The translations under genes were made by a program, and so were the position numbers. A stretch of 64,000 nt of DNA from assembly GCA_965645245.1 (NCBI GenBank), contig OZ287069.1:124001-188000 (forward strand), in the 5' to 3' direction. The stretch comes from Massalongia carnosa. Its lineage: Eukaryota. This document shows positions 14,101-62,383 of the stretch, one piece after another; within the stretch, counting starts at the first letter, position 1; the number at the start of each line of letters is the position of its first letter. The notes under the pieces were generated by a model. That model was given only the letters and a program-made list of their open reading frames with translations. It was not told the DNA's origin and did no database searches.

Positions 14101-15209
14101 GACGATTATACGAACCGCTTACGTCACTCTCCACCGACGAATTAATGGACGCCATGTCTCGACGACTCTTCTCCTCGTATGGCTTTCCATTGTCAACGGT
14201 AAACGATCGAGGCAGTCAGCTGACTGCTCATCTGTGGAAAAGAATTTGTGAAAGATACGGAGTAAAGATAAAGTTCTCTTCAGCGCATCATCCAGAAACG
14301 GATGGTCAAAGTGAGAATGCAAATAAAGTAATGAAGAACTACCTTCGATCATACATCAATTATGCTCAGGACAACTGGGTCGACTATCTTTCAGATGCCG
14401 CGTTCGCCGTCAACAATCATGTTAACGTTTCGACAGGAATGACACCATTTTTCGCAGATCACGGCTTTCATCCTCGTTCGGGAATAGAGCCTCCAGGAAC
14501 ATATGAAGAAAAGGGAAAAGCCGAGATACTTCATGCTGACAAAATAGTCGCTCGCCAGGAAGCAATGCGAGAATGGTTAAGAAATCAGCTAACATGGGCC
14601 CAGGGAGAACAAACACGACATGCTAACAAAGATCGTCAACCGCACCCAGAATACAAAGTGGGCGATTTAGTGTACGTTAATGCTAAACATTTCGCATCAG
14701 AGCGTCCAAGTCGTTCCCTCGGGTTTAAAAACGTTGGTCCCTGGAAAATTGTTAGAATAATCGATAACAAGGCATATGAGCTTGACATACCACAGCATTT
14801 AAAGAATGTGGGACTCACCCCAATATTTCATCCATGGAAGTTGCATCTCGCTCCGTCCAATCCGTTCCCAGGGCAAGTACTGCCTCCCGGCCCACCTGTC
14901 TTGATCACCGAGAACGATAAGGAGGCAACACATGAAGAGTGGGAAATCTTAGAGATAGTGGACTGTCGAGAGACAAGGAAATTTGGGGTACAGTATAAGG
15001 CTACATATATTGGAAATTGGGACGAATGGAACGCTGACCCACCTTGGCAACCATGGACCGACTTCAGAAAGTCTATCGAAAAGGTTCTGCAATATCATAG
15101 AGAACATCCTCGAAAACCGAAGGCGCCAGAGGACCTCACAGGGATGGATCAGACGATCGATAACGTCAGACCATCTACGGAAAGCGTAGATGGACCCGAT
15201 GAGGCTTAG
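11139..15209 (+). CDS. pol: Gypsy Pol: protease, RT, RNase H, integrase, chromodomain; one apparent 1-bp indel near 11292
   Basis: LLVDNGSE protease (frame open from 11295); YLDD; ETDSSD/DKELLAI; HH-CC and DDE integrase; GPWKI; EEWEILEIVD...WQPWTDF chromodomain. Confidence 0.93.
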
Positions 15210-31114: not shown

Positions 31115-32279
31115 CTAGATGGAGGTGCCCGGCGGCGCTCCGGATCGATGCCCTGGTTGACCTGTACGCCCAATGGAATGCCCAATTGAGTAGGGGTAGG
31201 AGTTTGTAGGATTCGTCTCGGCGACGACAGCACGTGGGACTGCCAGAGGGATGCCTTTTTGAAAATTGAGGTTCAAATTGAATAGTGAGGCCTGGGACGT
31301 CTGAAAGTATAGCTGAAACGCGTTTGATGACCATCTTCCGAGTCTCTGAATACTCTCATCCAGCATCCCGTGGTCGGCGGCGTGTTGTGCTGCTCCTTTT
31401 CTGAAGCTGTGTCCCGAGTATGCCGAGTCGTTGATGCCGGCGGCTATCAGTCTCTTTTTCAGGGATGCTATGACGGAGGCTCTGGTGAATGCGGTGCCGA
31501 GACGAAAAAGCGGGGATGTAGATGGCTGAGGATCATTTCTGAAAAAGACGCCGTAGTGCTGTCACGGGGCAAGTGCTCTCATTAGTCGCTGCCAGCACTA
31601 TCTGAACTCCTGAGTGATTTGTGTCTGTTTTGCTTCTTTTGAGACGTAATGTCGCGTATTGATCGTTCTCGGCGAATGAGATGTCACCTCGTGTAGGTTT
31701 CAATCTCTGAAAAGATGTCTTCTTACGATCGGCGACAGTGTAGGTGATTTCCCCGAGTCTGAGGAACCCTGCCCATGCAACTTTGAATGTCGCGTCGATG
31801 TTGAGGTCTTCGGCCGAATGAGCGGGAATACTGGTGATTTTTGTCAGTAATTCTTTTGAAATGGGTAGGCGTCTTCTTTTTGTCTGAGAAAAGATCCTTT
31901 TTCCCCCTTTCAGCATCAATTGAAGTCTCGGCCCCTCGAATGGGGTGAGGCCGTATCCTCGGTCTACATGGTATGATCTGAGGCCGGCGAGGTAGCTCGC
32001 TGCCGTCTCTGGTTTTATCTTTCCCTGCTTGGGTGTGCCGCCCCCGTATAGTCGACCGGCTAGCCATTCCTCGAGGGACTCGGTTGTTGCAGGCCACGAC
32101 GTGCGTCCCGTCGTTGCGCAGAATGCCTCGTATGAGTCGATCGCCGTCCCGTACCCTTTTCTCGTGTCCGCCGAGTGTCCGTGCCAGACGAGGCGTTTTA
32201 CCAGGGCTGACCCTGGTGTGGAGGATACGTAGGTGGAGGGAGGTTCATCGAATTGTATGGGTTCTGCCAATGAGGGCAA
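31115..32279 (-). pseudogene. Ngaro-1 tyrosine recombinase, frameshift near 31540
   Basis: GFLRLGE, RSKTD, then in the next frame YSGHSFRKGAA...LGRWSSNAFQLY. Confidence 0.9.
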
Positions 32280-33901
32280 AAGTTAGCCAATCTTTCATCA
32301 TCAAAACGTGACAGGGCATCTGCTAGTCCATTGGAAGTGCCACTGATCCATTGACAACGTAGTACGATGTCCCACTTTGCAGCTATGGACAGTATTTCTC
32401 GTAGAGGCGCGTTGGCCGGTCCCTTGAGGGTTAGATTCGTGAATCCTGTGTATGCTGTGTTGCTGTCGGTAAAGACAAGGATCTGTCGATGTCGCCATGT
32501 CGGCGCCCATTTCTGAAGGATTAGAAGGATAGCCTCGACTTCTCGGACGTTTATGCTCGGTGATTCTTCCTGATTGAGGACTAGGACTCGGGCCCTACAT
32601 GCGTTTTTTTGATTCACGAGCTCGTTGTCTTGTTGAAAATAGCCTCCGAGACCCGTGAGGCATGCATCCGTATGCACCTTGATCGTGTCTCGTGTTGACG
32701 TCTCGAAGAAGACAATACCGTTGAAGTCCACTAAAAGTTTGTTCCACCAGATGAGATCCTGTCTGACCCATGTGGAAATTCTTCTTTTGACCCGACGATG
32801 ACTGCCCGAGGGAAATGAGGCTATAAAATTCCAGAATAATCGTAAGAAGACTCGGCCCAATTTGACTGCCTGTGCGCAGAAGCTTAGGAAGCCCGCTATT
32901 GATTGCATGTCGCCGAGGCTGATTGTCGTCTCGTTTAGTGCCTTTGTAGTGATGATTCTCGCTTTTTCCAGCTTGTCCGCTGGCAGACGAATAAGACTGT
33001 TGATGGTGTCGACCTCGAGTCCGAAGACTGTCGCTGTCGTTCCCTCGGCGTCTTTTGAGTCGTTTCTCGGGATGCCGAGAATGTCGGTGAGAATGTTGTA
33101 GGCTTTTGTTTCTTGGTGCAATCGTTCTGACGATGTCTCGGATGGGAAAATTGCAACGAAGTCGTCTAGATAGTGATGTAATCTCCATTGTAGAAAGGAT
33201 TCCAAAATCCAATGAAAGCCTTCCGCAAAAAGATTGAAGATGAACGGGGCCGTCGACAGTCCGAACGAAAGGCATGTCTCGGTGTAGAATTCGTCATTCC
33301 ATCCGAAACCCAGAAGCCATTGATGATGAGGTGCGACGGGAACGTTTCGAAAGGCGTCTTTGACGTCTCTTTTCACTATGACAGCACCTTTGCCCTCTGA
33401 CAGAATCAATTGAATAATGTCGTCGAGTCTAGCGTATTGTAATTTGGATGCCTCTTCTGGAATGTTGTCGTTGACTGATGTTTGATTGGGATGAGACAGA
33501 TGATGAATGCGTCGCCATCCTCCGTCATGTTTCGGGACCAAGCCGAGGAGGGAGGCCACAAATGGCTGACTCGGGGCGGCTATTCGTCTGACTCGGCCCT
33601 TCCTGAGGTCCTCTTGAAGCTTATTCTCGATCGTTTCCGGGTCCTCATTCGCTGATGTCAGATTTTTTTCGATCCGAAGGATGTCTGTGGGGCCTTCGTA
33701 TCCGATTTGTACTCCGAAACGAAGGATCATGGGCAGATGGACTCGGAGGGGGCCCGGATACTCTTGAAGTAGGGTTGCCCATGCGGACGGTACGAGGGGA
33801 GATGGGCTGTCTTTCAAACGCTGACGAGATGCGTCTACGAGTTGAAACGAAGGGATTGTATTTGGTCTGATTGGTGCAGGTAAGCAGGGATGGGACGTCA
33901 T
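32198..33901 (-). CDS. Ngaro-1 reverse transcriptase-RNase H
   Basis: GLVPK, WRRIHHLS, KRDVKDAFR, LSFGL, HYLDDF; HTDAC, INVREV, FTDS, NGLADALSR. Confidence 0.93.
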   Translation of the reverse strand: MTSHPCLPAPIRPNTIPSFQLVDASRQRLKDSPSPLVPSAWATLLQEYPGPLRVHLPMILRFGVQIGYEGPTDILRIEKNLTSANEDPETIENKLQEDLRKGRVRRIAAPSQPFVASLLGLVPKHDGGWRRIHHLSHPNQTSVNDNIPEEASKLQYARLDDIIQLILSEGKGAVIVKRDVKDAFRNVPVAPHHQWLLGFGWNDEFYTETCLSFGLSTAPFIFNLFAEGFHWILESFLQWRLHHYLDDFVAIFPSETSSERLHQETKAYNILTDILGIPRNDSKDAEGTTATVFGLEVDTINSLIRLPADKLEKARIITTKALNETTISLGDMQSIAGFLSFCAQAVKLGRVFLRLFWNFIASFPSGSHRRVKRRISTWVRQDLIWWNKLLVDFNGIVFFETSTRDTIKVHTDACLTGLGGYFQQDNELVNQKNACRARVLVLNQEESPSINVREVEAILLILQKWAPTWRHRQILVFTDSNTAYTGFTNLTLKGPANAPLREILSIAAKWDIVLRCQWISGTSNGLADALSRFDDERLANFCPHWQNPYNSMNLPPPTYPPHQGQPW

Positions 33902-33946
33902 GAATTCAGCTATTGAAGCTATTCTACTGCCTCCTACACCAACCCC

Positions 33947-34960
33947 CTATTTCTTCGTTGGGCATGTCTTCTGGCCATGCCCAGCCGCGCCGCACGATTT
34001 GCATTTGTGCTGTCGGTAGCACGACGGCCAGGTGCAGGTGCCGCTGTTGTACTTGTCGCAGATTTCCCCCGCTGCCTTCTCGGCCCTCTCGGCCCTGTCT
34101 CCTCTCGGGGTCGGTCGTCGGGACGGCGGGGATCGTGAGCGGCGACGGCGTAGGACTGTGAGGGGGGTGCAGAATCGAGCTTGGAATTCGTCGGGCATTT
34201 TCCATTGGGATGCGTCGGATGGCTGAGACGCGATGACGTGGGTGTGGGTTTCGATGGCGAGGGGGAGGACTGCTTCCTGCCACTCGTACACCTTGGCCAG
34301 CGTGAGGATTTTTCCGTGGAATGCCGACATGGTGGCGTGAAGCTGTTGACTCGATTTCCCGAAAAGACTGACCATGATCGAGGTGTAGTTGATGAAGCTC
34401 TCGGTCCAGACGTCATGAACTGTCTTTCCGAAATCTTTGTAGGTCCCGGATGCCTTTCTCAACCTCAAGGCGCCGTCTTCGATGCCGATGCGGTCTTGAT
34501 CCTTGTATGACTCGTATTGCATGCCGCGCATGTGTCGGAGGCGGGAGAGGTTGATGGCTTTGAATTTATTTGAAAAGATCTTGATGATCTCGTCCTGTGG
34601 TAGGCCCGCGAAACGGGGTGCTATGCTTCTTACTTCGAGAGGGATCTCACCTAGGTCCTCGTCGTCATCGCCGACGACACGACTCGGCTTGCCAGCAGGA
34701 ATGACGGCCGCTATTCGGGCGTCAGAGTCTCGGCGCATGCAGTCGATTTCTAGCTGCATTTTTTCCACCTCCTTCTCGGCGACCAATGCCTTGGACTCGG
34801 CAATTCTAGCCTCAGCCTCGGCCGCCTTCGCTTCCGCCTCGGCTTTCTTCTTTTGTAGGGCGAAGATTTGATTGGATTGGGCCTACGTCAATCCGACAAT
34901 CTCCTGGGGGTCGGGGACTATGTCGTCCATCAAGGTGCTTTGGGAACGGGTGTTCGTCAT
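33947..34960 (-). pseudogene. gag: Ngaro-1 Gag-like ORF1; ATG at 34960, one internal TAG at 34885-34883
   Basis: C-terminal CDKYNSGTCTWPSCYRQHKCKSCGAAGHGQKTC zinc fingers. Confidence 0.8.
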
Positions 34961-34963
34961 TGG

Positions 34964-35086
34964 GAGGTAGGGGCACCGAGACAACGTGAGGTCGACGACG
35001 AGTCAGTGAGATTGGAAAAGCAGCAAGCACTGACAGCGAGGTAGGGGCACCGAGACAACGTGGGGTCGACGACGAGTCAGTGAGAT
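34964..35086. repeat. 49-bp direct repeat x2 in the Ngaro-1 leader
   Basis: gaggtaggggcaccgagacaacgtg(a/g)ggtcgacgacgagtcagtgagat at 34964 and 35038. Confidence 0.9.
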
Positions 35087-37387: not shown

Positions 37388-38064
37388 AACTTCCATCCCT
37401 GCGTGGCGGAAAACCCTACGTGCCGGAACGACTTTATGATTTGGGAGTCTCAAATCTCTACCAAATAAATATTTCAAAGTTACAATTAGTTTGCTATTGT
37501 TCTTTAACTATTTCTCTACAAGGGTTCGGTTTGCAGTAAGAAAATACTATGATTATGGTCATGTTATCAATTGTCCCGTTGGTAGTGTTGATAGTCATTT
37601 CGGCTGTTCCTCCCTGCTCTATCATGACTATTGGCCTATCTCCAAATTTCGGGACCGTAGCACGAAGCTCCTATCAAGAAATAATATTGCTCCAAGTTTT
37701 CACGATACCCGGCTATCAGAAACTAATGTTCCGAGTTTGGCCGGGCGAATGTGGGGTACATGAAAGTGACTCGTCTGAGCGGGGTAATCTAGCGTCCTTA
37801 CATTATACTGTATTTTCAGACTGAACTAGCTATACTTGTTATGCCCTATATCATATATAGTTAAAGTGTGGCGCATGTTTCCAGAAGATTCCATTAGTGC
37901 AACGTGTCCTTTGACAGCGCCGGCCGGGGATCGCGCTTCTTGCGCTCGCAAGAGCTGGCCTACTCCTCGTAACCTCAATATTATTACTTCGTTAACGTAA
38001 AGCCGATTCAAATCGACTTCCTAAAATTGCATTAAAAAAACCCTAGAAGATACATACGGATTTG

Positions 38065-40095
38065 ATGAATCAATCTTATAAGTACAATCCACTCGATCGC
38101 ACGAAGAGGGAGATCAGGCTTGTCCGTATCAAGGGTTTTGTCGAAGTCACCGCTTTCATTCGGAATCCTATCGCGTCCGATCTACTTGAAAGAGATGATG
38201 TCTTCCGAGCAATGATCGAAAAAGACTTTCCTATGCAATGCTCCATTGAACATGCGTCTTTGGACGACAAGCCTCCGTATATTGCTTTGTCATATACTTG
38301 GGGCGACCCCACTAACAAGAAACCAATCCATGTCACGAATGAGGATGGCACGGTCACAACACTCCAAGTTACGCAAAACCTCTAAGCCGCTTTAAGACAT
38401 ATTCGTCCAGATCTCTTGCCAAATATAGAAGACGATGCTCTGCTCTGGATCGACGCCATCTGCATCAACCAGACCGATGAATACGAAAAGAGTTGGCAGG
38501 TACAACAAATGTTGTACATCTATCGCAACGCACTCAACCTTCTGGTTTTTCTTGGATCCAGAACAGACGGTAGCGCCGAATTCATGGACGAGATGGATGC
38601 CTCCTTCAACAAGTACACAACTTGGGTTCGTGGGCATCAAAATGTCGACATAAATCATTGGGATCTTAATAAAGAAGTTAATAATCTCCTTGGTGCGGCG
38701 TCGTTCGTTCATCAACCCTATTGGCGACGTGTGTGGATTCAGCAGGAGATCTATGCTAAGCCCTTCGTTAATGAGTGGCTGCAATGGGGTCAAAAAATCA
38801 TCAACCTAACAAAAGTGTATGTTTTCATGGTTGGCCTGAAAAACCTATACACTACGCTTCGTCGACAAGAACTGCAATCCCTAGTATCCAGTTCCCTCAC
38901 TGCTGCAGATCTACGTCTGGTCATGGAAAGCCATGAGTACGAAATGGTGCTCCAGACTATCTACCGCACACACGATTCTGATGAAGCACACGACTCACTT
39001 ACCCTGGTAAATCTCTTAGGTATTATCCATGTCGTAGGCTACGGCCTCCAAGCTTTCGATCCCCGCGACCACATATTTGGTGTTCTGAATATGGCTGCGG
39101 ATGTTGAATCCCTTGGATTAGTCCCGGATTACACACAGTCCTCTGAGAAAGTATTCATTGAGGCTGCAACGGCATTAATCAAGAAGGGAGAGATTGTAAT
39201 CTTGGGATGGGCAAATGCTTTCGGTTCGGGGCCGCCCAGTATTGAGTCTACAGTTTCCAAATTGCCGTCATGGGTACCAGACTGGCGATTACCGATTTCT
39301 TCGTCTATTGGTGCTTTCACGCAGTTCTTCACAACGGTGCAGATTCAATACCGTGCCGGTCGTCAAAGAAGTTTTTGCACAGCTCGCTTTGTAGATTCTA
39401 AGAAAGAGAGCGATGTACCAACAATGAGCTCCTATGGGGTTGAGATCGATACAGTCCTCTCACTCAGCAAGGTTTTGACCAGGGAAAGGAGCCAATCTTC
39501 GAATAGTAGCACAGACGAGTCTCAGAGTAGCCTAGAGAAGTCTGACCAAATTACAGGATCCCCAAGAGGTGACCAGCTTCTCCGCTCACAACCTCAAGGA
39601 CACTGGTTCGAGGAACTAGAAAATCTTATCAGTCTCGACGAAACCACCCAGGAGTCTCCATGGGACCTCAGAGATACTGTATGGCGAGTACCGGTTGGTG
39701 ACATTGAGCTCACCGCAGAAGGCGAGTATAAAAGAGCTAGTCACGCATTCAAAAACGGCTACTCACTTCTCCACGACCGCTTCATGCAACCTGATACTAC
39801 AAAGTGTCACACAAATGAAGAGAAGTTGCTAGCTTCGCGGTTCTGGGAAATCATGGACGCTCAAAGCCTGGGGAGGCGGTACTTCATAACCAAGAAAGGC
39901 TATATCGGACTCGGCCCGGAAGCATTGGCTCCTGGAGACCTCGCCGTGGTTCTCCTGGCGCTGAACACACCCCTGATCCTGAGACCAGTGGAAGAAGGCC
40001 ACTGTCGCATTGTTGGGGAAGCATACGTGAACGGTATGATGGATGGGCAAGCCTTCGAGGGCGACTACAAATTGCGAGAGTTTCTGATTGATTAG
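38065..40095 (+). pseudogene. HET-domain (HET-6-like) protein with a single in-frame TAA at 38383-38385
   Basis: EIRLV, YIALSYTWG, VTQNL*AALRHIR, LWIDAICINQ, QVQQM..IY, YWRRVWIQQE, DPRDHIFG, LPSWVPDW, GYIGLGP, VGEAYVNGMMDG, all in one frame. Confidence 0.9.
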
Positions 40096-40172
40096 ATGCT
40101 TGCGAGAAGGGAAAGGGCCAAGAGCGAGTACGACGACTGCTGATCGACAAGCAAGTACGCGAGACCTCGTAG

Positions 40173-40879
40173 ATTTGACCTTGATATCTACCAGTATGAT
40201 GCGGTCAGTGCTTTCATAAATAGCCCGATTGATGAGGAAATCTTTTGTGAGTGTCCAGAAGGTTTTGACAAGCCCGGATACTGTTGGAAGCTTAGAAAAG
40301 CTCTGTACGGATTAAAACATGCACCGATTCTATGGTATAAGCTCCTAACCATGGCCCTAGAGGAACTCGGACTAGCGCAGTCCCAGGGGTCAACTGTCTA
40401 TTTGCCAATGAGTGGATTATCCTATTCTTCTATGTCGATGACATTGTGGTCATACGCAGGAAGCATAAGTCGGACAAATTTTAAGAATTTGAGAAAGCTC
40501 TCCTGAAACGATTCGAAATGCATGCTCTAGGGGAATTGAAATGGTTTCTCGGTATAAGGATTACCCGAGACCGAGCAAATAAGAAGATATGGTTATGTCA
40601 GGACTCATACATTACCAAAATGGCTGCGAAATTTAATCAGCACGGGGAAACCGCGAAAACACCACTGACAGTGGTGTCTCCAGCCTATGAAAAGGAGCAA
40701 AAAGCAGACAGTCAACGTATATATGCGTACCAGCAACGGGTAGGTTCATTGAACTTCCCAGCGGTAATATCCCGGCCCGATATAGCATTTGCAACTGCAA
40801 AATTAGCTTAATTCTTACAAAACCCGTGCCCGGATAATCTGTCTGCGGCCGATCGGGTTATTGCTTTTCTAAATGGGAC
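40173..40879 (+). mobile_element. Degenerate Copia RT fragment
   Basis: QYDAVSAFIN, KALYGLK, FYVDDIV, WFLGIRI, SRPDIAF; cut by Ngaro-2. Confidence 0.88.
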
Positions 40880-41606
40880 CTAGTTCGTGTCAATCTCGTT
40901 ATATTGCTACTAAGTATGTTTGGGCTATTGCTCACAGCCCCCGGCCTCGAGAGGGGGACTCGATAAGGGCCTTGCTGTCTACTAATGTAAGACCCTCTCG
41001 CAGGCCTTGGGCTGTGAACAGACTCCCTCTATCTAAGCGACAGAAGAACTGGAGTGGGTGGGTGGGAAAGAAAACGTTGCAAACAGTGCTATCAAAATGC
41101 TATGCTTTTTGATTGTCTTGAGATGTGAGATGATGAGGGATACCGTCTGGGACCTCCTCTTTATATATCTTCTTCCTATTCTCCTTGTCCTACTCTACCA
41201 TCCCAGTATGCCCCATCAACGCGGCCCATAGCAAGGCATACACAAATCCGAAACCTAACTGTCGTCCGAAGGATCGATGCGGTGCTAAGATCTCTATGCC
41301 GTGCTGAGACATCCTTATGGTGCTGAGACATCTATGCCGTCCGAGAGATCCATGCGGTGCCGAAATCAAAGCGGGAGCTGTCTCGATTAACGACGCACTA
41401 GCTCTCAGCATAGCCGAACTAGCTAGTTCGTGTCAATCTCGTTATATTGCTACTAAGTATGTTTGGGCTATTGCTCACAGCCCCCGGCCTCGAGAGGGGG
41501 ACTCGATAAGGGCCTTGCTGTCTACTAATGTAAGACCCTCTCGCAGGCCTTGGGCTGTGAACAGACTCCCAATCCCCAACATGGAACGACCCGCTTGCGG
41601 TGTTGT

Positions 41607-42643
41607 TCAGGACCTAGTGACTGGATTGTGAGGTTCCGTGGGTAATGTTTGAAGGCGTTTTGAGGCGTTAAGAAGGTAAGTGGGGTGGGTTTGTATGTAA
41701 AGCTTGTATGCGTCTGACTTCCATCTTCCTAGCATCTGAATCTCGTCTTCGGTGAGTCCTGCCCGTCGCGCTGTTGTTGCCGCACCTCTTCTGAACGAGT
41801 GGCCAGAGAAATTTCCTATATAGCCCAAGTTCCTTAAGGTGGATTTCATCGCTGTTGTAATGTAGTCTCGAGTGAAGGACTGACCGTTTTTAAAGAGTGG
41901 TGCGGCCGGAGAACTTGGGAATCGCCTATATAAATTTGTAAGAGAAGCTAGTGCACAAGCAACATCGTTGGTAGCCGCAATTGTCAGTGTTATGCCTCGG
42001 CGAAAGGGATCGGTTTTGGAGACTGGTAGAGAGAGCTGTAGGTGATCTGCTTCGAACCTAATAGATTTTCTGGTGAGGTGCCATTGATCAAAGCTTGGGT
42101 CTAGTACATCTTGCGTTGTGTAAGTAAATTCTCCGGCTCGTAAGAAGCCTGCAAACGCTAAGCAGTACGCCGCATGTAAATTTGCGCCTTTCTCTTTCGT
42201 TTGATCAAGACGACTTAGCAATTTGATTAAGATCTCTCTAGTAATTGGTAACCTTTCACGTTTCTCGGCTTCACCGTTCTTTCGCTTTATGCCAGTAAGG
42301 ATGCGATCTAACACCGGGTGATGAAATACGTCGAGATTACCGAGGCCCATATCTATCTGGCATGATCTTATGCCCGTCAAGTAGCTCTTAATAGTTTTTG
42401 GTTGCAGGCGTCGTTCACCCAACGCTGCGATCCACGAAGACAGCGTCCGGATGTTGGCTGGAAATGGTGGCGCGTTGAGGTTTACCCTACAGTAAAGAAC
42501 GTATCCCTTTCTTGCCGTTGTGTATAAAGATCTTGTCTTAGTGGCCAGGCCCCACCAGAGGTATCGTGCTGCGATTTCGTCTAGAGGTACCTCACTGTAC
42601 CAAGATGGGGGTGGATCGCGTCCTATATTGCTGAGGGTAGAGC
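41607..42643 (-). CDS. Ngaro-2 tyrosine recombinase; frame open from about 42662 with no AUG start
   Basis: GFLRAGE, SKTDPFR, GHSFRRGAA, LGRWKSDAYKLY catalytic residues all present. Confidence 0.93.
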
Positions 42644-44239
42644 CTGAAACTGAGGGATTTTGTCAGCCAGTTTCTTCAAAAGTCCTCTAGACAAGAGATC
42701 AGCAATATAATTTTCTTTGGATGATATCCATCGCGCTTCTATCTGGATATCATGTAATGCAGCTAGCATTGTAATTGCCCGCAGGGCATGCATTGCTTGG
42801 CCTCGTATAGAGGTTTTATTCACTCCTTTCGTGACAGCGTAGCTATCACAATAGAGGATTAAATGACTACCCTTGCATATAGGTAGCCACTTTTTCATAG
42901 CTTGAAGAATTGCTGTCATTTCTTTGACGTTGATATGCTTTGCCCTAAGGCGCGTAGTAAAGCGTGTGCTAAAAGCCTGCCGGGCTGCTTGTATATTATG
43001 CAAATTTTGATCCTCGCTGAGGATAAAGCCGCCCATACCATATGAGCCGGACGCATCTGTCCATATTCTCATAGTATGTCTAGTACGGTTGAGCAGATGT
43101 ATGCCATTCCATTTAGGTAGGAAATGATGCCACCATAGAAGATCAGCCCTCATGTCCTTGTTAAGATGGATTAGTTTAGAGGTTACGCTTGCCGTAGCAT
43201 TGAAAAGACGGCGTAGAAAGGCTCTTCCTGGTTTTACCACTCTGGCTGCAAAGCATAAGAATCCTAGAAGAGAGTCGAGTTCCTTCCTGGGTATGGCTTT
43301 TTTATTCAAAGCTGCCGATACTAGGGTCTTTGCTTTTAGTAACTTTTCGGAAGGCAAGCGTGCTTCCATGAGCGCGGTATCGATTTCAATGCCGAGGAAA
43401 TCGCAAGTCGTTCCAGTTCTGTTCTTTTCGAGCTTGATTTTCATGCCAAGATCTTTACAAATGTTGTGGAAAACTTGATCAAACTTTTCAGCATCTGGTC
43501 CGGTGCTGACTATTATTAAAAAATCATCCAAGTAATGAATAGCGTCTTTCCAACCACAGTTGTACAATATCCAGTTGATACCCTTCGCGAACAGATCAAA
43601 AAGGAACGGCGACGTTCTCAGCCCAAAGGGTAAGTATTTATCCATCCAAAAGGAATCCTGCCACTTGAAACCTAGTAACCACCAATCGCTTTTTGCTACT
43701 GGTATGTGGCGAAAAGCGTCCGCAAAGTCTCTTTTAATAAGAATACACCCTGGCCCGCGTTGCTCAATCAACCTAATGGCTTCGTCGAAGCTGGTATATT
43801 CCAGGGAGCCCCAGTCTTCCGGTATGTGGTCGTTGACTGAGCTACTCTCCGGATACGATAGATGATGGATTCGCCGCCAACCACCGTTAGCCTTTGGTAC
43901 AAGGCCTAATGGGGAACATATAAAGCAAGAAGGAATGTTGTTGACTTTCTCCAACCGATTACTAGCTATTTGTTCTTCGAGGTCATTGGTAAGAACTTCC
44001 GGTGCCTCATTTGCAGAGGCAAGATTATCGCTAATAATGAGTTGATGTGGTCCTGTATAACCAACTTTGGCACCGTAGGTGATGATATCGATAATTGTTT
44101 GTGTGTAAGTGCGATCCGGGTGATTGGCCAAATGTTTCTCCCAGCCTTCTTTCTTCAATGGGCCCGGTGGGATCTTTGTTAGATTGTCCGTCAAGGTGTA
44201 TGGAAAGGACTCCGCGATGGATAAGAATGGGGCGGTTAG
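42623..44239 (-). CDS. Ngaro-2 RT-RNase H, in frame with gag, no usable AUG
   Basis: PLGLVPK, KRDFADAFR, LPFGL, HYLDDF; WTDASG, INVKEM, YCDS, NYIADLLSR. Confidence 0.93.
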   Translation of the reverse strand, partial: LTAPFLSIAESFPYTLTDNLTKIPPGPLKKEGWEKHLANHPDRTYTQTIIDIITYGAKVGYTGPHQLIISDNLASANEAPEVLTNDLEEQIASNRLEKVNNIPSCFICSPLGLVPKANGGWRRIHHLSYPESSSVNDHIPEDWGSLEYTSFDEAIRLIEQRGPGCILIKRDFADAFRHIPVAKSDWWLLGFKWQDSFWMDKYLPFGLRTSPFLFDLFAKGINWILYNCGWKDAIHYLDDFLIIVSTGPDAEKFDQVFHNICKDLGMKIKLEKNRTGTTCDFLGIEIDTALMEARLPSEKLLKAKTLVSAALNKKAIPRKELDSLLGFLCFAARVVKPGRAFLRRLFNATASVTSKLIHLNKDMRADLLWWHHFLPKWNGIHLLNRTRHTMRIWTDASGSYGMGGFILSEDQNLHNIQAARQAFSTRFTTRLRAKHINVKEMTAILQAMKKWLPICKGSHLILYCDSYAVTKGVNKTSIRGQAMHALRAITMLAALHDIQIEARWISSKENYIADLLSRGLLKKLADKIPQFQALPSAI

Positions 44240-45394
44240 TCATTGCCTTGATGGGAGAGGCATCGAATTTGGGTTAGAGGGTTGATTTTTTCCATTTGTA
44301 CAGTCCATCGCCCGATGTTGCTTTCCACATTTCTCACACACATGTTGGAATCTACAATATACGGGACAGTCTTTGCCATAGTTGTATTTCTTACAGATAA
44401 TCTTTTCGCCTGAGGTTTTGAAAGCCGTAGAATTATCGTCCGGTTTTGCAAAGTAAGCGGACGGTTTCCGCACAAGATGCCTTTCCAAGGAATGGTCCAT
44501 TTCTTTCCATCCATCCGGGTTGTCAATCCCGCGAAAGGCTCGAGATTTGTGGAAATTCAAATGAAAGATGCGAACCGAGTCCCAGGTGTAGAAGGCGTAT
44601 AATGATAGAAGATGGTCCTGATAAGCCATGAAGGCTCTCATCAGGTTTATCTGGAGACCGGGGTGTGCAAAGTGTAGTAGTATCATCCAATATACCCCGA
44701 GACATCGTATCAAATGAACTATCCCTTTGATATCTTTTAAGGAGCCATCTTCTTCTCTCGTGGCGATTTCCAGACCTTCTCCGAGTTTGACGTATCTAGA
44801 GTTGGTTTGAACTCCGTCGATGTCGGTACATAGCTTGGTAATGTTGATTGGGTCAAACGTATTCTCGGAGATTTGCTTTATCCATATGGGCTTGATAGTG
44901 GGATATTCGTTCATAAGAGAAACAAAACGAGGATCCATACCTTCTGTATACAATGAGTTTGGTCGATGCGGTGGAAATGATGTCGGAAATAATAGGGAAG
45001 GCTGTTGAGCTGAGGCTACTGGCCCAGGGACCACGTCTCGGGCACGTGCTTGTTGGGTTTCGATATCCCGCCTAAGACTTACTCTTTCTCTTTCCTCGGC
45101 TTCCCTGCGGGACATTTCGCGTTGTGCTCTAAGTTCAATAATGTCATCAGGGGTGCGAGAACGGGTTTCCGGTATAACAGGCCCTTGTGAGGAGGAATTA
45201 AACGCTGAAGATGGAAGAGGAGAAGGTTGAGGATGGCTTTGAAGGGTTGCCGTGCTGTCTTGTGAGTCGGGTACTTCGACGTCTGGGTTGGAGTTGGCTA
45301 GATTTGCCCTAGCTCTAGTTCTAGTACGGGCTAGAGTGCTGCCTTGTGTGCGGGAGGTAGGCTTGGTGATTCTGTTGGAGATGCGGGTGGCCAT
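44240..45394 (-). CDS. gag: Ngaro-2 Gag-like ORF1
   Basis: ATG at 45394; YTWDSVRIFHLNFH; CKKYNYGKDCPVYCRFQHVCEKCGKQHRAMDC. Confidence 0.85.
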   Translation of the reverse strand: MATRISNRITKPTSRTQGSTLARTRTRARANLANSNPDVEVPDSQDSTATLQSHPQPSPLPSSAFNSSSQGPVIPETRSRTPDDIIELRAQREMSRREAEERERVSLRRDIETQQARARDVVPGPVASAQQPSLLFPTSFPPHRPNSLYTEGMDPRFVSLMNEYPTIKPIWIKQISENTFDPINITKLCTDIDGVQTNSRYVKLGEGLEIATREEDGSLKDIKGIVHLIRCLGVYWMILLHFAHPGLQINLMRAFMAYQDHLLSLYAFYTWDSVRIFHLNFHKSRAFRGIDNPDGWKEMDHSLERHLVRKPSAYFAKPDDNSTAFKTSGEKIICKKYNYGKDCPVYCRFQHVCEKCGKQHRAMDCTNGKNQPSNPNSMPLPSRQ

Positions 45395-45818
45395 TTTTGG
45401 AGGAGAGGGATTTGAATAGAGTAAATTTAAGTGTAGTGGTTGTATAAATTTGAATTGGGTGAAAAGAAAACGTTGCAAACAGTGCTATCAAAATGCTATG
45501 CTTTTTGATTGTCTTGAGATGTGAGATGATGAGGGATACCGTCTGGGACCTCCTCTTTATATATCTTCTTCCTATTCTCCTTGTCCTACTCTACCATCCC
45601 AGTATGCCCCATCAACGCGGCCCATAGCAAGGCATACACAAATCCGAAACCTAACTGTCGTCCGAAGGATCGATGCGGTGCTAAGATCTCTATGCCGTGC
45701 TGAGACATCCTTATGGTGCTGAGACATCTATGCCGTCCGAGAGATCCATGCGGTGCCGAAATCAAAGCGGGAGCTGTCTCGATTAACGACGCACTAGCTC
45801 TCAGCATAGCCGAACTAG

Positions 45819-51963: not shown

Positions 51964-52034
51964 GTCGGTCATTCACCCTTCTCCCAAGAATCTCATTGCT
52001 ACTGTTCCTCAAGTCAAATAACCCATAGTCTACA

Positions 52035-54554
52035 ATGGACCATCTCCCACGTCCCTTCGGCATCGAGCTCACCGAAGCAGATGATGTTCCGTATGTGGCT
52101 CTCAATGATTATCACAGTGTTCCCTTCCTCGAATACGTGAAACTCAATGAGGCCTATCAAGTTGCCCCGGATATGCTAGATGCAAGTTTCATGTCACTCT
52201 ATGATTCTAGGCCGAAGATATCTGAGCTCGAGCGCTTTCTTCAGACATGGCTCTTCTTTGGACTCCTTCAGGAGACGTTGGGTGAAATTTTCAATCATCA
52301 TGACTTCGTGCATGCTAAAGGCTCCAAAGTGGTCATTTCGACAAAGCGACTTTCAGAGAAACTCAAGCAATGGATGAGTGACCCGAACCTTGATCAACAG
52401 CGTCTCACCCACCTTCATCAGTGCTTGCACATGGCTTCGGTAGCTCTTGTTGCCACACCTGGAATGTTCGATACTAAGCTGAAGATTGGCATTGCTGCCA
52501 CAGTCGAGGTCATTGACACTGCTCTAATCCTAGTCGCGAAGGCCAAGAATATAAGCACAAGCCTCCCCTCCGCGGTAAGGTGCTGGGGTGACTTGGATGA
52601 ATCAAATTTGCGAGTAGCGGAGATGCATGAGCTACACGGGTGGTGTCCTGCCCAAGCCTCGTTCACGCTTAGAAAATTTTATTCACTACAAGCCAAAATA
52701 TTTTTCTCCAAAATCACGAAACCTCACCAAACCGGCATTCATGATTCCTGTTCAGTTGAAAATTGCCGTGCACCCTTGATATACAAATCGTTACATCGTC
52801 ATCCGGGTATCTGCAAAGTCGTTAAGACGAATCAAGAAGAGGTGATCAAGGCGCTGAAAGATGGCAAGAATGCCCTCTTAGATCTCACATTGAACCCGAC
52901 ATTCGATGAAATCTCTGTCGCTATTGTCGCCGCACAACCGAAATCTTGGTACATCGCACTTTCTCATGTCTGGGCAGATGGACTCGGCAACGCGAAAGAA
53001 AATTCTCTGCCTCAATGTCAACTTCGGCGTATTTACGATCTCCTCACAAGCTTCTGCAAAGAAGAATTCATTGTAGGGGATCAGAAGAGGCCTTACCTAT
53101 GGCTCGATACACTCTGCTGCCCGGTAGATCCGGAGGGTAAGCTCCTCGCCCTAGCAAAAATGCCAGAGGTTTACCGAAATGCGTCGCAAGTACTTGTTTT
53201 GGACTCATCTCTGACCGAGATCGATTGTAGGCGCCTTCAACCGATAGAGGTGTTATCGAGGGTGTTCTCGTCAGGTTGGATATTCAGGTTGTGGACCCTC
53301 AACGAGGCCAACTTAGCGTTAAGACTCTGGATCCAATTTCAGGATGGAATCATTGAGTTAGGCCAAGTCTTTAGCGCCATGTCTACGATGACGAAACCTG
53401 AAACATACCACTTCACCAGCGAACTTGCTAGCGAGTATGGAAAGCTTCGAATCGAAGACTCGAAGCACACTGGAGGGAAGCTCTGGTATCTCACGGAAGC
53501 ACTAAGATATCGATCCGTTAGTGAAGTTTCTGACGAGCCGATTTGTGTCGGGGCTTTGCTGCGATTGGATGTTGGTGTCATTACTGGGAAAGAGAAACTC
53601 TTACCATCCGCAAATCAGGAGGACAGAAATAGGCTTAGGGACGCAAGGATGGCCGTTTTATGGGAATCATCTTCTCAGCGCCAACTGTTGATCCCCAAGG
53701 CCTCAATTTACCACGTTGGGGATAGACTCACAAAACCAGGACTGAGATGGGCGCCATCAACACTGCTCAACATAGAGAGTACCTCTCACTTCTTCTGTTC
53801 AACAGAAACGGATTTTGCGCTTCCATCACCAAATGGGTTGATTCTCTCCTCTGCAGCATATTCGATCTCGGTGCCTGAGCGCGTAGACAGCATTCTCAGT
53901 CGCGCCTCGACAGCGGCTTCTAGCATGCTTGATCTTCTAAAATACGATGAGCTTCAATGGCTTACGATTTTCAGCACCTCTGGGCAGAAGAAATATCCAT
54001 TGGGTTGCAATCATATGGCGTTTTATGACATCATGATAGAAACAGGAAGAGACGCAGATTTTGAGATCTTAATCGAAAACTCTGCGAGACTCTTGCAAGA
54101 CTCATACAAAAGCACGAATTGTCTCCTCGTAGAAAATTTCACCAAAGACAGTCAAAACCCTGACTCAAAGATGAAGAATGCTCATTTTGTCCGGCAGGGG
54201 TGGATTACGAACCACGATCGAGCCACATGTGCTTTCCTCAATTCATTACTCGGACAGGCTCAAGCGCTTCAAAACGACAACATCACTCGAGAGATTCGAG
54301 AGCTGAGTGAACACGGCGATCAGGATCAGCGGTACCTCGATGCCTATCAACGACTGCTCAAAAAAGTTGAGACAATCGTGACTCAGCTTGAAGCAGAACT
54401 GGACGCGGAAGACAAAAAACTTCCCGATAGTGGGCTTGGGCTCATGCATAATCGACGAAAGTCGATTTTTTCATTGCTCTCGCGTTTTTATCGAAACCGT
54501 TATCTTGTAAAAGAACGGGATTTTTCTATTTCACAGAAGTATTGTATTGATTAA
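52035..54554 (+). CDS. HET-domain protein (839 aa), intact and intronless
   Basis: FLQTWLFFGLL; YIALSHVWADGLGN; LWLDTLCCP; VYRNASQVLVLDS; WIFRLWTLNE. Confidence 0.9.
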   Translation: MDHLPRPFGIELTEADDVPYVALNDYHSVPFLEYVKLNEAYQVAPDMLDASFMSLYDSRPKISELERFLQTWLFFGLLQETLGEIFNHHDFVHAKGSKVVISTKRLSEKLKQWMSDPNLDQQRLTHLHQCLHMASVALVATPGMFDTKLKIGIAATVEVIDTALILVAKAKNISTSLPSAVRCWGDLDESNLRVAEMHELHGWCPAQASFTLRKFYSLQAKIFFSKITKPHQTGIHDSCSVENCRAPLIYKSLHRHPGICKVVKTNQEEVIKALKDGKNALLDLTLNPTFDEISVAIVAAQPKSWYIALSHVWADGLGNAKENSLPQCQLRRIYDLLTSFCKEEFIVGDQKRPYLWLDTLCCPVDPEGKLLALAKMPEVYRNASQVLVLDSSLTEIDCRRLQPIEVLSRVFSSGWIFRLWTLNEANLALRLWIQFQDGIIELGQVFSAMSTMTKPETYHFTSELASEYGKLRIEDSKHTGGKLWYLTEALRYRSVSEVSDEPICVGALLRLDVGVITGKEKLLPSANQEDRNRLRDARMAVLWESSSQRQLLIPKASIYHVGDRLTKPGLRWAPSTLLNIESTSHFFCSTETDFALPSPNGLILSSAAYSISVPERVDSILSRASTAASSMLDLLKYDELQWLTIFSTSGQKKYPLGCNHMAFYDIMIETGRDADFEILIENSARLLQDSYKSTNCLLVENFTKDSQNPDSKMKNAHFVRQGWITNHDRATCAFLNSLLGQAQALQNDNITREIRELSEHGDQDQRYLDAYQRLLKKVETIVTQLEAELDAEDKKLPDSGLGLMHNRRKSIFSLLSRFYRNRYLVKERDFSISQKYCID

Positions 54555-58523: not shown

Positions 58524-61500
58524 TATCGGTCTTGGCAACCTCCGCGCCTTTGACTGAAACAAGTAAGGAGGCTAATCTTGAGCGGGTTCCTTGTATTAGA
58601 TATCCGGTCCGTTTGAGGAAGGATCAAGACGAGATACAGGCTTTGATAGATTCGGGCAGCGAGGTCAACACAATGCACCCCGCTTATGCCGCGAAACTAG
58701 GCCTTCGTGTTAGGGAAACAGATGTTGGGGCGCAAAAGATTGATGGATCTCACCTGGATACCTTCGTTATGGTTATCGCAGGGTTCGCGGTCAAGGACAA
58801 GCTAGGGAAGGTTCGAGTCTTCCAGGAAACCTTCTTGTTGGCTAATATTAGCCTGGAGGTGGTCCTGGGGATGCCTTTTCTTACACTCAGCAGTGTGGAT
58901 ATACGATTCGCAGAGCGAGAGCTCGCCTGAGAGCTCGCCTGGAGAACCTACACAGCTGCCGAGGCTTTACCAACAACCAGACGTGTGGAGATCATCGATA
59001 AGGAAGAATTCGCGGCGGCGGTCCTTGGAGGAGACGACGAGGCATATGTGGTGCATGTAATGGCCGTAAGCAAGCTATCGTCCATGCCGATCCACTCCTC
59101 TCGTCAGGCCCAAGTAGCCTCGCTAGTGAGCGAGGAGGCCAAGATCCCCGTTGAATATTCCGACTTCTCTGACTTCTTCTCCCCTGACTCTGCAGTAGAG
59201 CTACCGGAGCACACCGGCATTAACGACCATCCTATCGACCTAGTAGATGGTAAGCAGCCACCTTATGGCCCAATCTACAGCCTAGGTCCTGTGGAACTAG
59301 AGACACTGAAAACCTATATCGAAACCAACCTAGCCAGCGGTTTTATTAGGCCTTCCCAGTCTCCGGCTGGTGCTCCGATACTGTTCATCCGCAAGAAGGA
59401 CGGTAGTCTCCGCCTGTGTGTGGATTATCGAGGACTCAACACCCTGACGATCAAGAATCGGTACCCGTTACCCTTGATCGGAGAGTCGCTTGATCGACTA
59501 GGCCGTGCCAAGCGATTTACCCATCTGGATCTCACGAATGCGTATCATCGGATGCGAATTCGAGAAGGTGACGAATGGAAGACGGCCTTCAGGACTCGAT
59601 ATGGCCATTTTGAGTATCAGGTTATGCCCTTCGGCCTTTCCAATGCCCCAGCTAGTTTTCAGGGCTATATCAAGAAAATTCTAGCAGAGAAACTCGACAT
59701 CTTCGTCATCGTATACTTGGATGACATCCTGATCTATACCGAGGACTCAGGCCAAGGCCACGTTGAGGCTGTTAAGTGGGTCTTGGAGAACCTCCGAAAA
59801 AACGGACTTTTTGCCAATCTAAAGAAGTGCCGTTTTCATCAGGATGAGGTTCGCTTCCTAGGCTACGTTGTCTCTGGCCGAGGAATTCGTATGGAAGAGG
59901 AAAGGATTGAAGCTGTCAAGAACTGGCCAGAACCAAAGTCAGTACGAGACGTCCAGGTGTTTATGGGATTCGCCAACTTCTACCGGCGGTTCATCCGGGG
60001 GTTCAGCAAGATTGCTGCTCCACTCACCTCGATGCTCAAAACAAACTTGGTAGCCAATACTGGGCCACCAAAGGCAAGGCGCGGAGAGGAAGAATGTTGT
60101 TTCCTAACTCCTGCCGCTAAGTTAGCCTTTGCCCAATTAAAGCAGGCGTTCACTGAAGTACCGATCCTCCGACATTTTGACCCTGAGCGCCACATCCGAC
60201 TTGAGACGGACGCCTCGGGTTACGCCATAGGTGGCGTTCTTAGCCAGTTGGACATCGAAACCGGCCAATGGCACCCAGTAGCGTATTTTTCTCGGAAAAT
60301 GATTCCTGCAGAAACTCGTTACGAAACTCACGATGGGGAACTACTGGCCATCGTTGAAGCCTTTAAGAATTGGAGACATTATCTCGAAGGTTGTAAGCAT
60401 GAAGTTCTCGTGCTTACGGACCACAACAACCTGCGGCGATTTATGGACACGAAGAGTTTAAGCTCCCGCCAGGTTCGCTGGGCGCAAGAACTCTCTCGTT
60501 ACACTTTCCGCATCGATTATCGTCAAGGCAAGGCTAATGGAGCTGCCGATGCTTTATCTCGCTATCCTCAGAGGAGCCAAGGCGAAGAGGAAGTGCTTCG
60601 AGCTGAGAATACTCGAATCCTTCACCGATTGCAGTCCTCGCTGACCAGCGCCAGCATCTCTGGTATCACTAGTACTCAGCATCTCACCCCTCCACACCAC
60701 GTCATCATCTGCGGAACGCACGTCTTCCCTCAACTACGTCAGTTTTGGGATACGCTCCGCCAAGACTTGACCTCTGAAGGTCCTTACAAAGTCAGCATTG
60801 GTGGCATGAGGTTGAGGTTGCAGGAGTTGCAGGAGGAAGATACCCAAGCTCAGATGATCAGAGCAGAGAAGCTTGGAAAAGATGGCTGGGAAGACACCGA
60901 TGGGATTTTGCATTATCAAAGCTTGCCTTATGTCCCTGAGATCCTCAGAACTGAGCTAATCAGTAGGCATCATGATGATCCATTAGCAGGACATTTCGGC
61001 ATCGAAAAGACGCGAGAACTCATTGCGAGAAAGTACTTCTGGGAGACTCTCCGCCGCGACGTCGAGAGCTATGTCAAGGGCTGCGACGTCTGCTTATCTT
61101 CTAAAGCGGTCAGACACAAGCCTTACGGAGACCTACAGTCACTGCCAGTGCCTACTCATCGCTGGAAAGACTTGTCTATGGATTTCGTGACAGGGTTGCC
61201 TGAATCTGCGGATTGGAAGCGCGACAGTTACGATTCGATCCTGGTTATCGTCGACCGGCTTACGAAGATGGTGCACTATGAGCCAGTGCTGACAACGATA
61301 ACAGCACCATGGCTAGCAGAGGTAATCATAGACGTGGTAGTTCGTCACCACGGCTTGCCAGACTCTATTGTCAGCGACCGCGGCTCAGTTTTCACTTCCA
61401 AGTTCTGGTCTTCCTTGTGCTACTTTTTAGGCATCAAGCGACGCCTCTCTACCGCGTTCCATCCACAGACCGATGGGCAGACCGAACGCCAGAACAGCAC

Positions 61501-62383
61501 CATGGAAGCCTACCTTAGGGCGTTCGTCAACTACGAACAAGACGACTGGGCGCGCCTGCTTCCAATGGCTGAGTTTGCGTACAACAATGCGAAAAACGCG
61601 AGCACTGGGCATACGCCGTTCGAGCTCAACTGTGGTTACCACCCCCGTGTCTCATATGAGGAAGACATCGACCCCCGCTCCAGGTCCAAGTCAGCAGACG
61701 AACTAGCTGCAGAACTAAAGGACTTGATGACTATCTGTAAGGAAAACCTTCAGCACGCACAAGAATGGCAGACAAAGGCCCACAACAAAGGAACCAAGCC
61801 ACGGAGCTATGCACCTGGCGATAAAGTTTGGTTGAACAGCAAGTATATTAAGACCAAACGCAATCGCAAGCTAGAGGCTAAGTTCTTTGGGCCATTCCGT
61901 GTCTTGCAACCAGTGGGCAAGCAAGCCTACAAGCTGGAGCTTCCAAAGCGGTGGCGCATCCATGATGTCTTTCATGTATCACTGCTGGAGCAGGACACCA
62001 CAAGGAAGGGGCGGGTGGACGAGAAGATCGCGGAGCAGCTGGAATTCGAAGCTGGTAACGATGAGGAGTACGAGGTTGAAGGCATTTTGTATAGCGCGGG
62101 TTACGCCAAGGAGTCAGAAGCTGGCCACCTACCAGGCCTCTACTATCTGGTCTCCTGGAAGGGCTATCCAGAAGATGAAAGTACGTGGGAACCGGCGGCA
62201 GCGATCAAACACCTTCGGAAGATCGTCAAAGCCTACCATGAGAGTAACCCCACCAAGCCGACAGCAACCTCTCCTCCTATCGACACCGCACCGCCAATGG
62301 CTAAGCCGACCGTTAAGCCTAAAAGCAAGCGGAAACGCGGCCAACCAGCTACCAGTACTCGGAGCAAGAAGGCGAAGAAGTAG
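58514..62383 (+). pseudogene. pol: Gypsy Pol with an in-frame TGA created by a 12-bp duplication (58917-58940)
   Basis: LIDSGSE; YLDD; ETDASG; integrase; GPFRV; EEYEVEGIL...YLVSWKGYPEDESTWEP chromodomain; gagagctcgcct twice. Confidence 0.93.

Follow-up and report, generated by a model that had tools for sequence, protein, structure and literature searches.

Conserved splice signals suggest that a fungal Ngaro retrotransposon and its relatives express their tyrosine recombinase as a Gag fusion from a spliced RNA

In avian sarcoma/leukosis viruses, the env mRNA is produced by a splice that fuses the very start of gag, its AUG with a few codons, in frame to env, and in Drosophila the copia element makes a spliced gag mRNA from which pol has been removed, which raises the output of Gag. 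Here we analyze a stretch of 64,000 nt from Massalongia carnosa (assembly GCA_965645245.1, contig OZ287069.1, positions 124,001 to 188,000, forward strand), called the window in the following, which carries on its minus strand two Ngaro-type retrotransposons, element 1 and element 2. The comparison with related loci leads us to consider it quite probable that element 2 contains a real intron, running from within gag to the end of the reverse transcriptase/RNase H (RT/RH) open reading frame (ORF), and that its removal yields a fusion of the Gag N-terminus (Gag-N) with the tyrosine recombinase (YR), whose own frame has no start codon where one would be expected. For plant Ty1/Copia elements and BARE, see PMC5580714 and PMC3735527. 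For the DIRS order, the passages on splicing in a study of DIRS-1 refer to an artificial marker intron only (PMC7192593), and the main text of Muszewska et al. 2013 on fungal Ngaro elements gives the YR ORF as lying in the same frame as RT-RH or as frameshifted (PMC3783388). No paper describing that DIRS or Ngaro elements naturally splice their RNA to express the YR was found in full-text literature searches, which did not cover the founding description of Ngaro by Goodwin & Poulter 2004.

Element 2 has the order gag-RT/RH-YR and split direct repeats, and in none of its three ORFs does Pfam detect a methyltransferase, a protease or a DDE integrase, which holds for element 1 as well; by these characters it belongs to the Ngaro group of the DIRS order. 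Its Pfam domains are RVT_1 (2.9e-14) and RT_RNaseH (1.4e-7), and there is a Phage_integrase match (4.6e-4) that at 20.4 bits lies under the Pfam cut-off of 27.1. The repeats (A, 300 nt; B, 148 nt; order A1...B1-A2-B2) are 100% identical within both pairs, and element 2 is therefore a young copy. Its first Met in the YR frame appears only about 105 codons into the open frame.

An earlier note on this DNA had proposed that the YR is made from a spliced mRNA that lacks RT. The donor, branch-point and CAG sites that it named in both elements are found where it had placed them when the minus strand is read; codon reading puts all of them in phase 1, with the Gag-N/YR junction in frame, and in both elements the YR frame is -1 relative to RT and has no ATG ahead of the conserved N-terminus. 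In element 2, the second exon would begin at the second base of a YR codon, which brings the junction into frame, and what the proposed intron would remove is the Gag core, zinc knuckle included, followed by the gag stop codon (TGA) and almost the whole of RT/RH. Both donors, GTATGG in element 2 and GTGAGA in element 1, fit the rule for fungal-type GT-AG donors (purine at +3, G at +5). Some details of the earlier proposal needed correction. The CAG ending at 42644, which it had taken as the acceptor of element 2, is present and in phase 1, but the acceptor homologous to that of the family is the preceding CAG, which ends at 42650. Likewise, the predicted product of 496 aa is right by arithmetic for the second CAG, whereas the first gives 498 aa, and the "homologous Gly codon" said to carry both donors is homologous only approximately, as the linker alignment is unreliable.

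In a single element such a configuration of splice sites is within chance: between the gag ATG and the YR start, element 2 has eight GTRNG sites, four of them in phase 1, and four CTRAY..YAG sites in 3.8 kb. Its significance comes from comparative data alone. A protein search with the YR returned 1474 homologs at E<=1e-10, and the alignment of these was used to fetch 80 related loci from metagenome contigs, with YR identities of 35-55%. The RT end and the YR start are both present in 63 of them, which reduce to 42 non-redundant loci with the two window elements included. The YR frame is -1 relative to RT in 58 of the 63. Between the opening of the YR frame and its conserved N-terminal motif, 32 of the 42 non-redundant loci have no ATG, so that the missing start codon is a trait of the family and not damage in the element 2 copy; homologs with an in-frame AUG for the YR, which the earlier note had named as evidence against its proposal, are thus a minority. 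A scan of viral contigs with the YR alignment gave no relatives.

A side observation concerns the start of the YR. Three codons before the motif D-[PE]-P-P, both elements have ATA (Ile), at 42624-42626 in element 2 and 32254-32256 in element 1 (minus strand), and in element 2 this codon and the RT stop overlap, reading ATAG. In many YR entries of the database, the called protein has M here ("MxRDPP"). We considered this M at -3 of DPP as proof of a separate YR start and rejected it, since most of the fetched loci have no ATG there in their DNA; the starts chosen for YR entries in the database are arbitrary, being internal or alternative ones.

On the acceptor side, CTRAY is the fungal branch-point word, and CTRAC...YAG is the ascomycete intron consensus. 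The last stop in the YR frame lies inside CT[AG]A[CT] in 37 of the 42 loci, as compared to 69 of 784 of the remaining -1-frame stops in RT. In 30 of these 37 loci the first YAG comes 13 nt past the branch A (range across loci 13-25 nt), and it is in phase 1 in 36 of the 37. The RT peptide over this region reads [IV]-[AT]-[ND]-L-A-P-Q-L, and 35 loci in one register allow the wobble bases to be counted. The Ala/Thr codon that supplies the T of the branch point has T as its third base in 35/35 loci (background of T at Ala/Thr 0.226); this T is forced by anchoring on the stop, yet among the 42 loci this register never occurs without the T, and control Ala codons at -12, -10 and +3 have mixed third bases. 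The Asn/Asp codon ends in C in 29/35 loci (background 0.556) and the codon at the Gln position in G in 31/35, with Gln encoded in 31 (background of G 0.445). From the branch point to the AG, wobble bases vary freely. Judged by these counts, the RT protein sequence does not explain the nucleotides of the acceptor region.

In the divergent loci L001, L055 and L064, the same signals stand a few codons earlier, as GCTGA[CT]...TTTCAG within an "IAD-ALSRF" motif, and this shift in position argues for function rather than inherited sequence. Element 2 itself also carries GCTGAT...CTAG at 42687-42702 (minus strand), in an "IAD-LLSR" motif, the place seemingly used by these three loci; past this site, the YR frame of element 2 runs into the stop of the downstream CTGAC.

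On the donor side, tblastn matches of the element 2 Gag (Gag2) start at residues 154-164 in 22 of 32 matching loci and at 85-141 or 221-264 in the rest. The main family carries, about 25 codons ahead of this Gag core, a G-[MT]-[YFS] peptide encoded in the DNA as G/GTA[TC]GT (the slash marks the exon end), in phase 1. Within a 48-codon donor segment of 27 non-redundant loci, GTRNGT occurs in phase 1 in 18, in phase 0 in one and in phase 2 in one, the last case being a dead copy whose frameshift puts this site out of phase. As split codon, 19/21 loci have GGT and 2/21 AGT (background of GGT 40/240), the Thr codon at the donor is ACG in 8/11 (background 28/265), and the next base is T in 20/21 loci. 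That the donor nucleotides are conserved, and not the residue, is seen from L003, where the split codon encodes Arg (C/GTACGT). Other lineages differ in their local sequence and all keep phase 1 (L041, G/GTAGGT; L064, CAG/GTATGT; L043, AAC/GTATGC). Donor-like hexamers have a density of 5.28 per kb in the donor segment as compared to 0.32 per kb in the remainder of the proposed intron, and strong donor-like hexamers in the intron body number 21 in sense, as against 49 +/- 7 in triplet shuffles and 160 in antisense.

A second phase-1 site, GTGAGA, encoding the peptide "GES", lies about 13 codons past the main donor in nine loci (L010, L022, L030, L035, L037, L039, L044, L062 and L075). The GTGAGA donor of element 1 resembles it, and it may be an alternative donor or a conserved protein motif. 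As the donor of the main family it was rejected, being absent from L009, L014 and others and lying within a conserved protein motif.

Across the related loci, donor, branch point, acceptor and phase are thus all conserved far beyond what coding constraint would produce, in their places as well as in their nucleotides, which is the outcome that the earlier note had suggested looking for in an alignment. The loci share descent; the comparative argument leans on saturated neighboring wobble sites and on several divergent lineages. That the sites are actually used for splicing is what we infer from this pattern.

If gag and YR are joined in silico at these sites, an intact ORF from the gag ATG to the end of the YR results in 12 of 27 loci, element 2 included; the other 15 fail by stops or frameshifts in the joined frame (11) or by having no upstream gag ATG (4). 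Via the first CAG, element 2 would lose an intron of 2,291 nt and give a joined ORF of 498 aa. For three divergent lineages the joined ORF is intact as well (L064, 486 aa; L043, 549 aa; L003, 475 aa), and the proposed introns measure 2.25-3.5 kb across loci.

Further support comes from a protein, P0018 (513 aa; sources NCBI and Logan), whose YR is 51% identical to that of element 2. Its residues 32-110 align to residues 78-150 of the element 2 Gag (38% identity, pairwise E 6e-7), and the alignment stops one residue short of the donor codon. By this alignment, P0018 has the predicted architecture of Gag-N followed by YR, and it may represent a gene model with an intron, a transcript or a copy that lacks RT. 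The idea that the YR comes from a spliced mRNA from which RT is removed is supported, at the level of sequence, by this architecture together with the conserved sites in the relatives. Three other proteins, P0142, P0240 and P0226, have N-terminal extensions of 95-110 residues, which match no fetched locus.

The position of the donor also makes sense with respect to the predicted structure of Gag. An AlphaFold model of Gag2 (alignment of 13 sequences, mean predicted local distance difference test score, pLDDT, of 62.8) starts with a disordered stretch (1-81), basic at its N-terminus, which leads into one long helix modeled with confidence (82-119); the linker after it (120-154) is again disordered, and the core is folded from 155 onward. 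In this model the donor, at residue 151/152, falls between linker and core, so that splicing would pass an N-terminal module on to the recombinase and leave out the Gag core and the zinc knuckle.

We propose that the full-length transcript of element 2 has two fates. Unspliced, it would serve as the message for gag and gag-RT/RH and, by analogy with other retroelements, as the template for reverse transcription. A fraction would be processed by the host spliceosome from G/GTATGG to the CAG ending at 42650 or to that ending at 42644, with GCTGAC as the branch point, and would thereby lose a 2.29-kb intron containing the Gag core and RT/RH. Translated from the gag AUG, the spliced mRNA would then give a protein of about 498 aa, in which Gag 1-151, comprising the basic disordered tail, the long helix and the linker, precedes the whole recombinase. 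Splicing would presumably be partial, and the shared N-terminal module may target or tether the recombinase, for instance to the nucleus or to Gag assemblies.

Several observations weigh against this proposal. The donor of element 2, GTATGG, is without the T at +6 of its relatives. A strong GTRNGT is absent from the donor place in 9 of 27 loci, several of which are visibly decayed, and 10 of 42 loci do have an ATG ahead of the conserved motif within the YR frame. Most loci belong to one large family, so that binomial figures overstate their independence. Fungal introns are mostly shorter than 100 nt, and the proposed intron, at 2.3-3.1 kb, is far longer than that, while the gap of 13 nt from branch point to AG is short. 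A long intron and a short gap would, for their part, fit inefficient, partial splicing, which the element would need to keep genomic RNA. P0018 may be an ab initio gene model built on the same signals; protein searches with Gag2 1-151 and with P0018 1-137 each matched only the query itself, and an exhaustive search with P0018 found no second protein matching into the Gag-N part. Already spliced, RT-less DNA copies were not found among the 80 loci.

Sequencing contigs that contain element 2 were also inspected for the predicted junctions. The element occurs in six runs from four studies, none of them recorded as RNA, and the contigs of X1, X2, X5 and X6 are of unrecorded kind. The joints 44941^42649 and 44941^42643 occur in none of these four sets, which says little, as contigs drop rare forms. 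Over element 2 the contigs have no other letters. Three joints are listed in them (42293>42912, 42949>43101 and 43135>43359), with sides of 29-35 nt, without CT..AC ends and from one diverged contig, and these are evidence neither way. The word depth of contigs identical to element 2 is about 7,400 in X1 and about 130-470 in X2, and X5 and X6, which are runs of other organisms, contain parts of element 2 at a depth of about 2; none of these depths can be read as copy number or expression.

The YR might instead be translated from unspliced RNA by recoding, that is by -1 frameshifting, by termination-reinitiation or from a non-AUG start such as the ATA before "DPP", with the splice-like motifs being incidental. 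The -1 relation of YR to RT in most loci is what frameshifting or an overlapping stop and start would give, the main text of the fungal Ngaro survey knows the YR ORF only as in frame with RT-RH or frameshifted (PMC3783388), and at the place where the calls of many homologs start with M, the two elements of the window have an ATA, which in element 2 overlaps the RT stop. However, the -1 relation follows equally from splicing, because the acceptor CAG doubles as an in-frame Gln codon of RT, and near the YR opening no more than 2 of 42 loci have a canonical heptamer of the form X XXY YYZ in the RT frame, at differing places; neither window element is among them. In the commonest arrangement (17/42 loci) the YR frame has already been open for 85 nt when the RT stop is reached, and before that point lie conserved YR residues, which reinitiation would therefore lose; in element 2 the codon at the RT stop is ATA and not ATG, and the 32 loci without any ATG speak in the same direction. 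Since recoding would also leave unexplained the fixed wobbles of CTRAC and CAG, the GTAYGT in gag, the matching phase and P0018, we regard it as unlikely. An internal promoter near the end of RT/RH, giving the YR a transcript of its own, fares no better with the start codon, as such a transcript would still be without an AUG before the conserved N-terminus in those 32 of 42 loci; it would not account for the conserved gag donor and the matching phases, and appears very improbable to us.

A different possibility is that the splice sites are real and the fusion is not their point: splicing might down-regulate the genomic RNA or the gag-pol message, or mark the RNA for host silencing, and the YR would start elsewhere on the spliced RNA. 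The sense-strand depletion of cryptic donor-like and acceptor-like motifs would indeed reflect general exposure to the spliceosome, with no particular product implied, and the ATG found in 10/42 loci stands just ahead of the conserved YR motif. Hard to reconcile with it are the joined ORFs that are intact, the Gag-N homology that P0018 carries in frame with its YR, and phase 1 at both ends in element 2, element 1, L003, L041, L043, L064 and the main family, despite their differing local sequences. These features make a splice without a meaningful fusion quite improbable, and we return to splicing that yields the Gag-N-YR fusion as the preferred explanation.

Beyond element 2, partial splicing of Gag-N to YR may be the ancestral and general way of YR expression in fungal Ngaro elements, and perhaps for other start-less YRs of the DIRS order, with the shared module bringing the YR to Gag and the cDNA, and with spliced RNAs occasionally being copied back into RT-less Gag-N+YR genes such as P0018. 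This extension is tentative, and we think of it as possible rather than probable. If it is true, copied-back spliced RNAs would be one way in which the recombinase of a retrotransposon could give rise to Crypton-like or domesticated recombinase genes. For element 2 and its relatives, the conserved intron would provide a concrete and directly testable mechanism for a start-less YR ORF that overlaps RT/RH, predicting a Gag-N-YR fusion of about 55 kDa. Splicing would at the same time be a built-in means to hold the recombinase low relative to Gag and RT. Pipelines that annotate transposable elements ORF by ORF, as well as gene callers, would miss such a fusion or call it truncated.

Table 1. Positions of the features of element 2 and element 1 in the window; splice signals, exons and introns are predictions.
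Feature	Position	Strand	Description
Element 2, whole	40880-45762	minus	Ngaro-type tyrosine-recombinase retrotransposon
Element 2, terminal repeat A1	45463-45762	minus	300 nt, 100% identical to A2
Element 2, gag ORF	44240-45394	minus	384 aa; ATG at 45394, TGA 44242-44240
Element 2, RT/RH ORF	42623-44239	minus	RVT_1, RT_RNaseH; TAG 42625-42623; same frame as gag
Element 2, YR frame	open from 42662 to TGA 41609-41607	minus	-1 relative to RT
Element 2, 3' split direct repeats	40880-41570	minus	B1 41423-41570, A2 41067-41366, B2 40880-41027
Element 2, proposed exon 1, coding part	44941-45394	minus	from the gag ATG; codes for Gag residues 1-151 and ends on base 1 of the Gly152 codon
Element 2, predicted 5' splice site	44935-44940	minus	GAA G/GTATGG; phase 1 in gag, Gly codon split after base 1
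Element 2, proposed intron	42650-44940	minus	2,291 nt; with the second CAG 42644-44940, 2,297 nt
Element 2, candidate branch-point motif GCTGAC	42662-42667	minus	branch A 42663; its TGA is the last stop in the YR frame
Element 2, first CAG	42650-42652	minus	13 nt past branch A, phase 1; family-homologous candidate 3' splice site
Element 2, second CAG	42644-42646	minus	19 nt past branch A, phase 1; possible alternative acceptor
Element 2, proposed exon 2	41607-42649	minus	YR coding to TGA 41609-41607; no ATG before the conserved N-terminal domain
Element 1, whole	~31115-34960	minus	Ngaro-type, decayed
Element 1, YR coding region	31115-32263	minus	broken by a frameshift near 31540
Element 1, proposed exon 1	34651-34960	minus	103 codons + 1 nt; in-frame TAG 34885-34883
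Element 1, candidate donor	34645-34650	minus	CTA G/GTGAGA, phase 1
Element 1, candidate branch point and acceptor	32264-32287	minus	GCTAAC 32287-32282, CAG 32266-32264, phase 1

The junction of gag and RT/RH deserves a remark of its own. At 44236-44245 (minus strand) the gag TGA of element 2 is followed by RT/RH in the same frame, with the context TGA-CTA, and TGA-C is also found in L001 (3349) and L007 (3400), which looks like production of Gag-RT/RH by stop-codon readthrough. Gag and RT share a frame in 13 of 24 loci, and in the other 11 there are 230-300 nt between the gag stop and the RT match.

With the TAG in its Gag-N and the frameshift in its YR, element 1 is a decayed copy, and its proteins are 24-40% identical to those of element 2. 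Terminal repeats were looked for in element 1 and none were found. Just upstream of its gag ATG there is a direct repeat of 49 nt (34964-35012 and 35038-35086, 98% identical, spacing 74).

The window as a whole resembles the genome of a filamentous fungus and is rich in transposons. Beside B2, about 380 nt away from the end of element 2, there is a copia-type RVT_2 fragment (40144-40503, plus strand, 7.7e-15), and an older copia element may have been the target into which, or next to which, element 2 inserted. Two Ty3/gypsy pol ORFs, at 11295-15209 and 58931-62383 (both plus strand), are unbroken (1304 and 1150 codons; a chromodomain is present in one), and the fact that they are long and intact suggests active or recent transposons in this genome; copia fragments are present in the window as well, and 488-3599 (minus strand) was noted alongside the Ty3/gypsy ORFs. 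Amid the transposons there are two ORFs with a HET domain (heterokaryon incompatibility), at 38386-40095 and 52029-54554 (both plus strand), the first of which is preceded in the same frame, with one stop between, by an ORF at 38047-38385.

How does the proposed expression of the YR compare to what has been described for other elements? DIRS-1 of Dictyostelium and other DIRS-order elements with overlapping ORFs have gag-like, RT/RH and YR proteins as in element 2, and their YR ORF overlaps the ORFs beside it or is out of frame with them. DIRS-1 differs from element 2 by inverted terminal repeats, an internal complementary region, a methyltransferase domain and another gene order. The fungal Ngaro elements of Muszewska et al. 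2013 share gag, RT/RH, YR and the split direct repeats with element 2 (PMC3783388). The words "intron" and "splic-" do not occur in the main text of that survey, where donor, branch point, acceptor and a fusion to Gag-N are not described (PMC3783388).

The likeness to copia lies in the use of partial splicing of a full-length RNA to make a second message and to set the ratio of proteins. In Ngaro, however, splicing would remove the Gag core together with RT/RH, open a start-less 3' ORF and create a fusion.

Closest to the proposed mechanism are the subgenomic mRNAs of retroviruses, in particular that of avian sarcoma/leukosis env. There, too, one primary transcript is used, the unspliced form of which is both genome and message for gag or gag-pol, and splicing connects a donor located at the gag start, or within it, to an acceptor before the last gene, which borrows the gag start codon. 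In contrast to avian sarcoma/leukosis env, element 2 would transfer about 150 Gag residues, including a helix, rather than a few codons, and the downstream gene of Ngaro is a recombinase for integration rather than an envelope. Furthermore, element 2 belongs to the DIRS/Ngaro order, has split direct repeats and carries neither protease nor DDE integrase. With these differences, the mechanism that we propose resembles both retroviral subgenomic mRNAs and the spliced gag mRNA of copia, and it would extend a retrovirus-like use of splicing to the third major class of retrotransposons.

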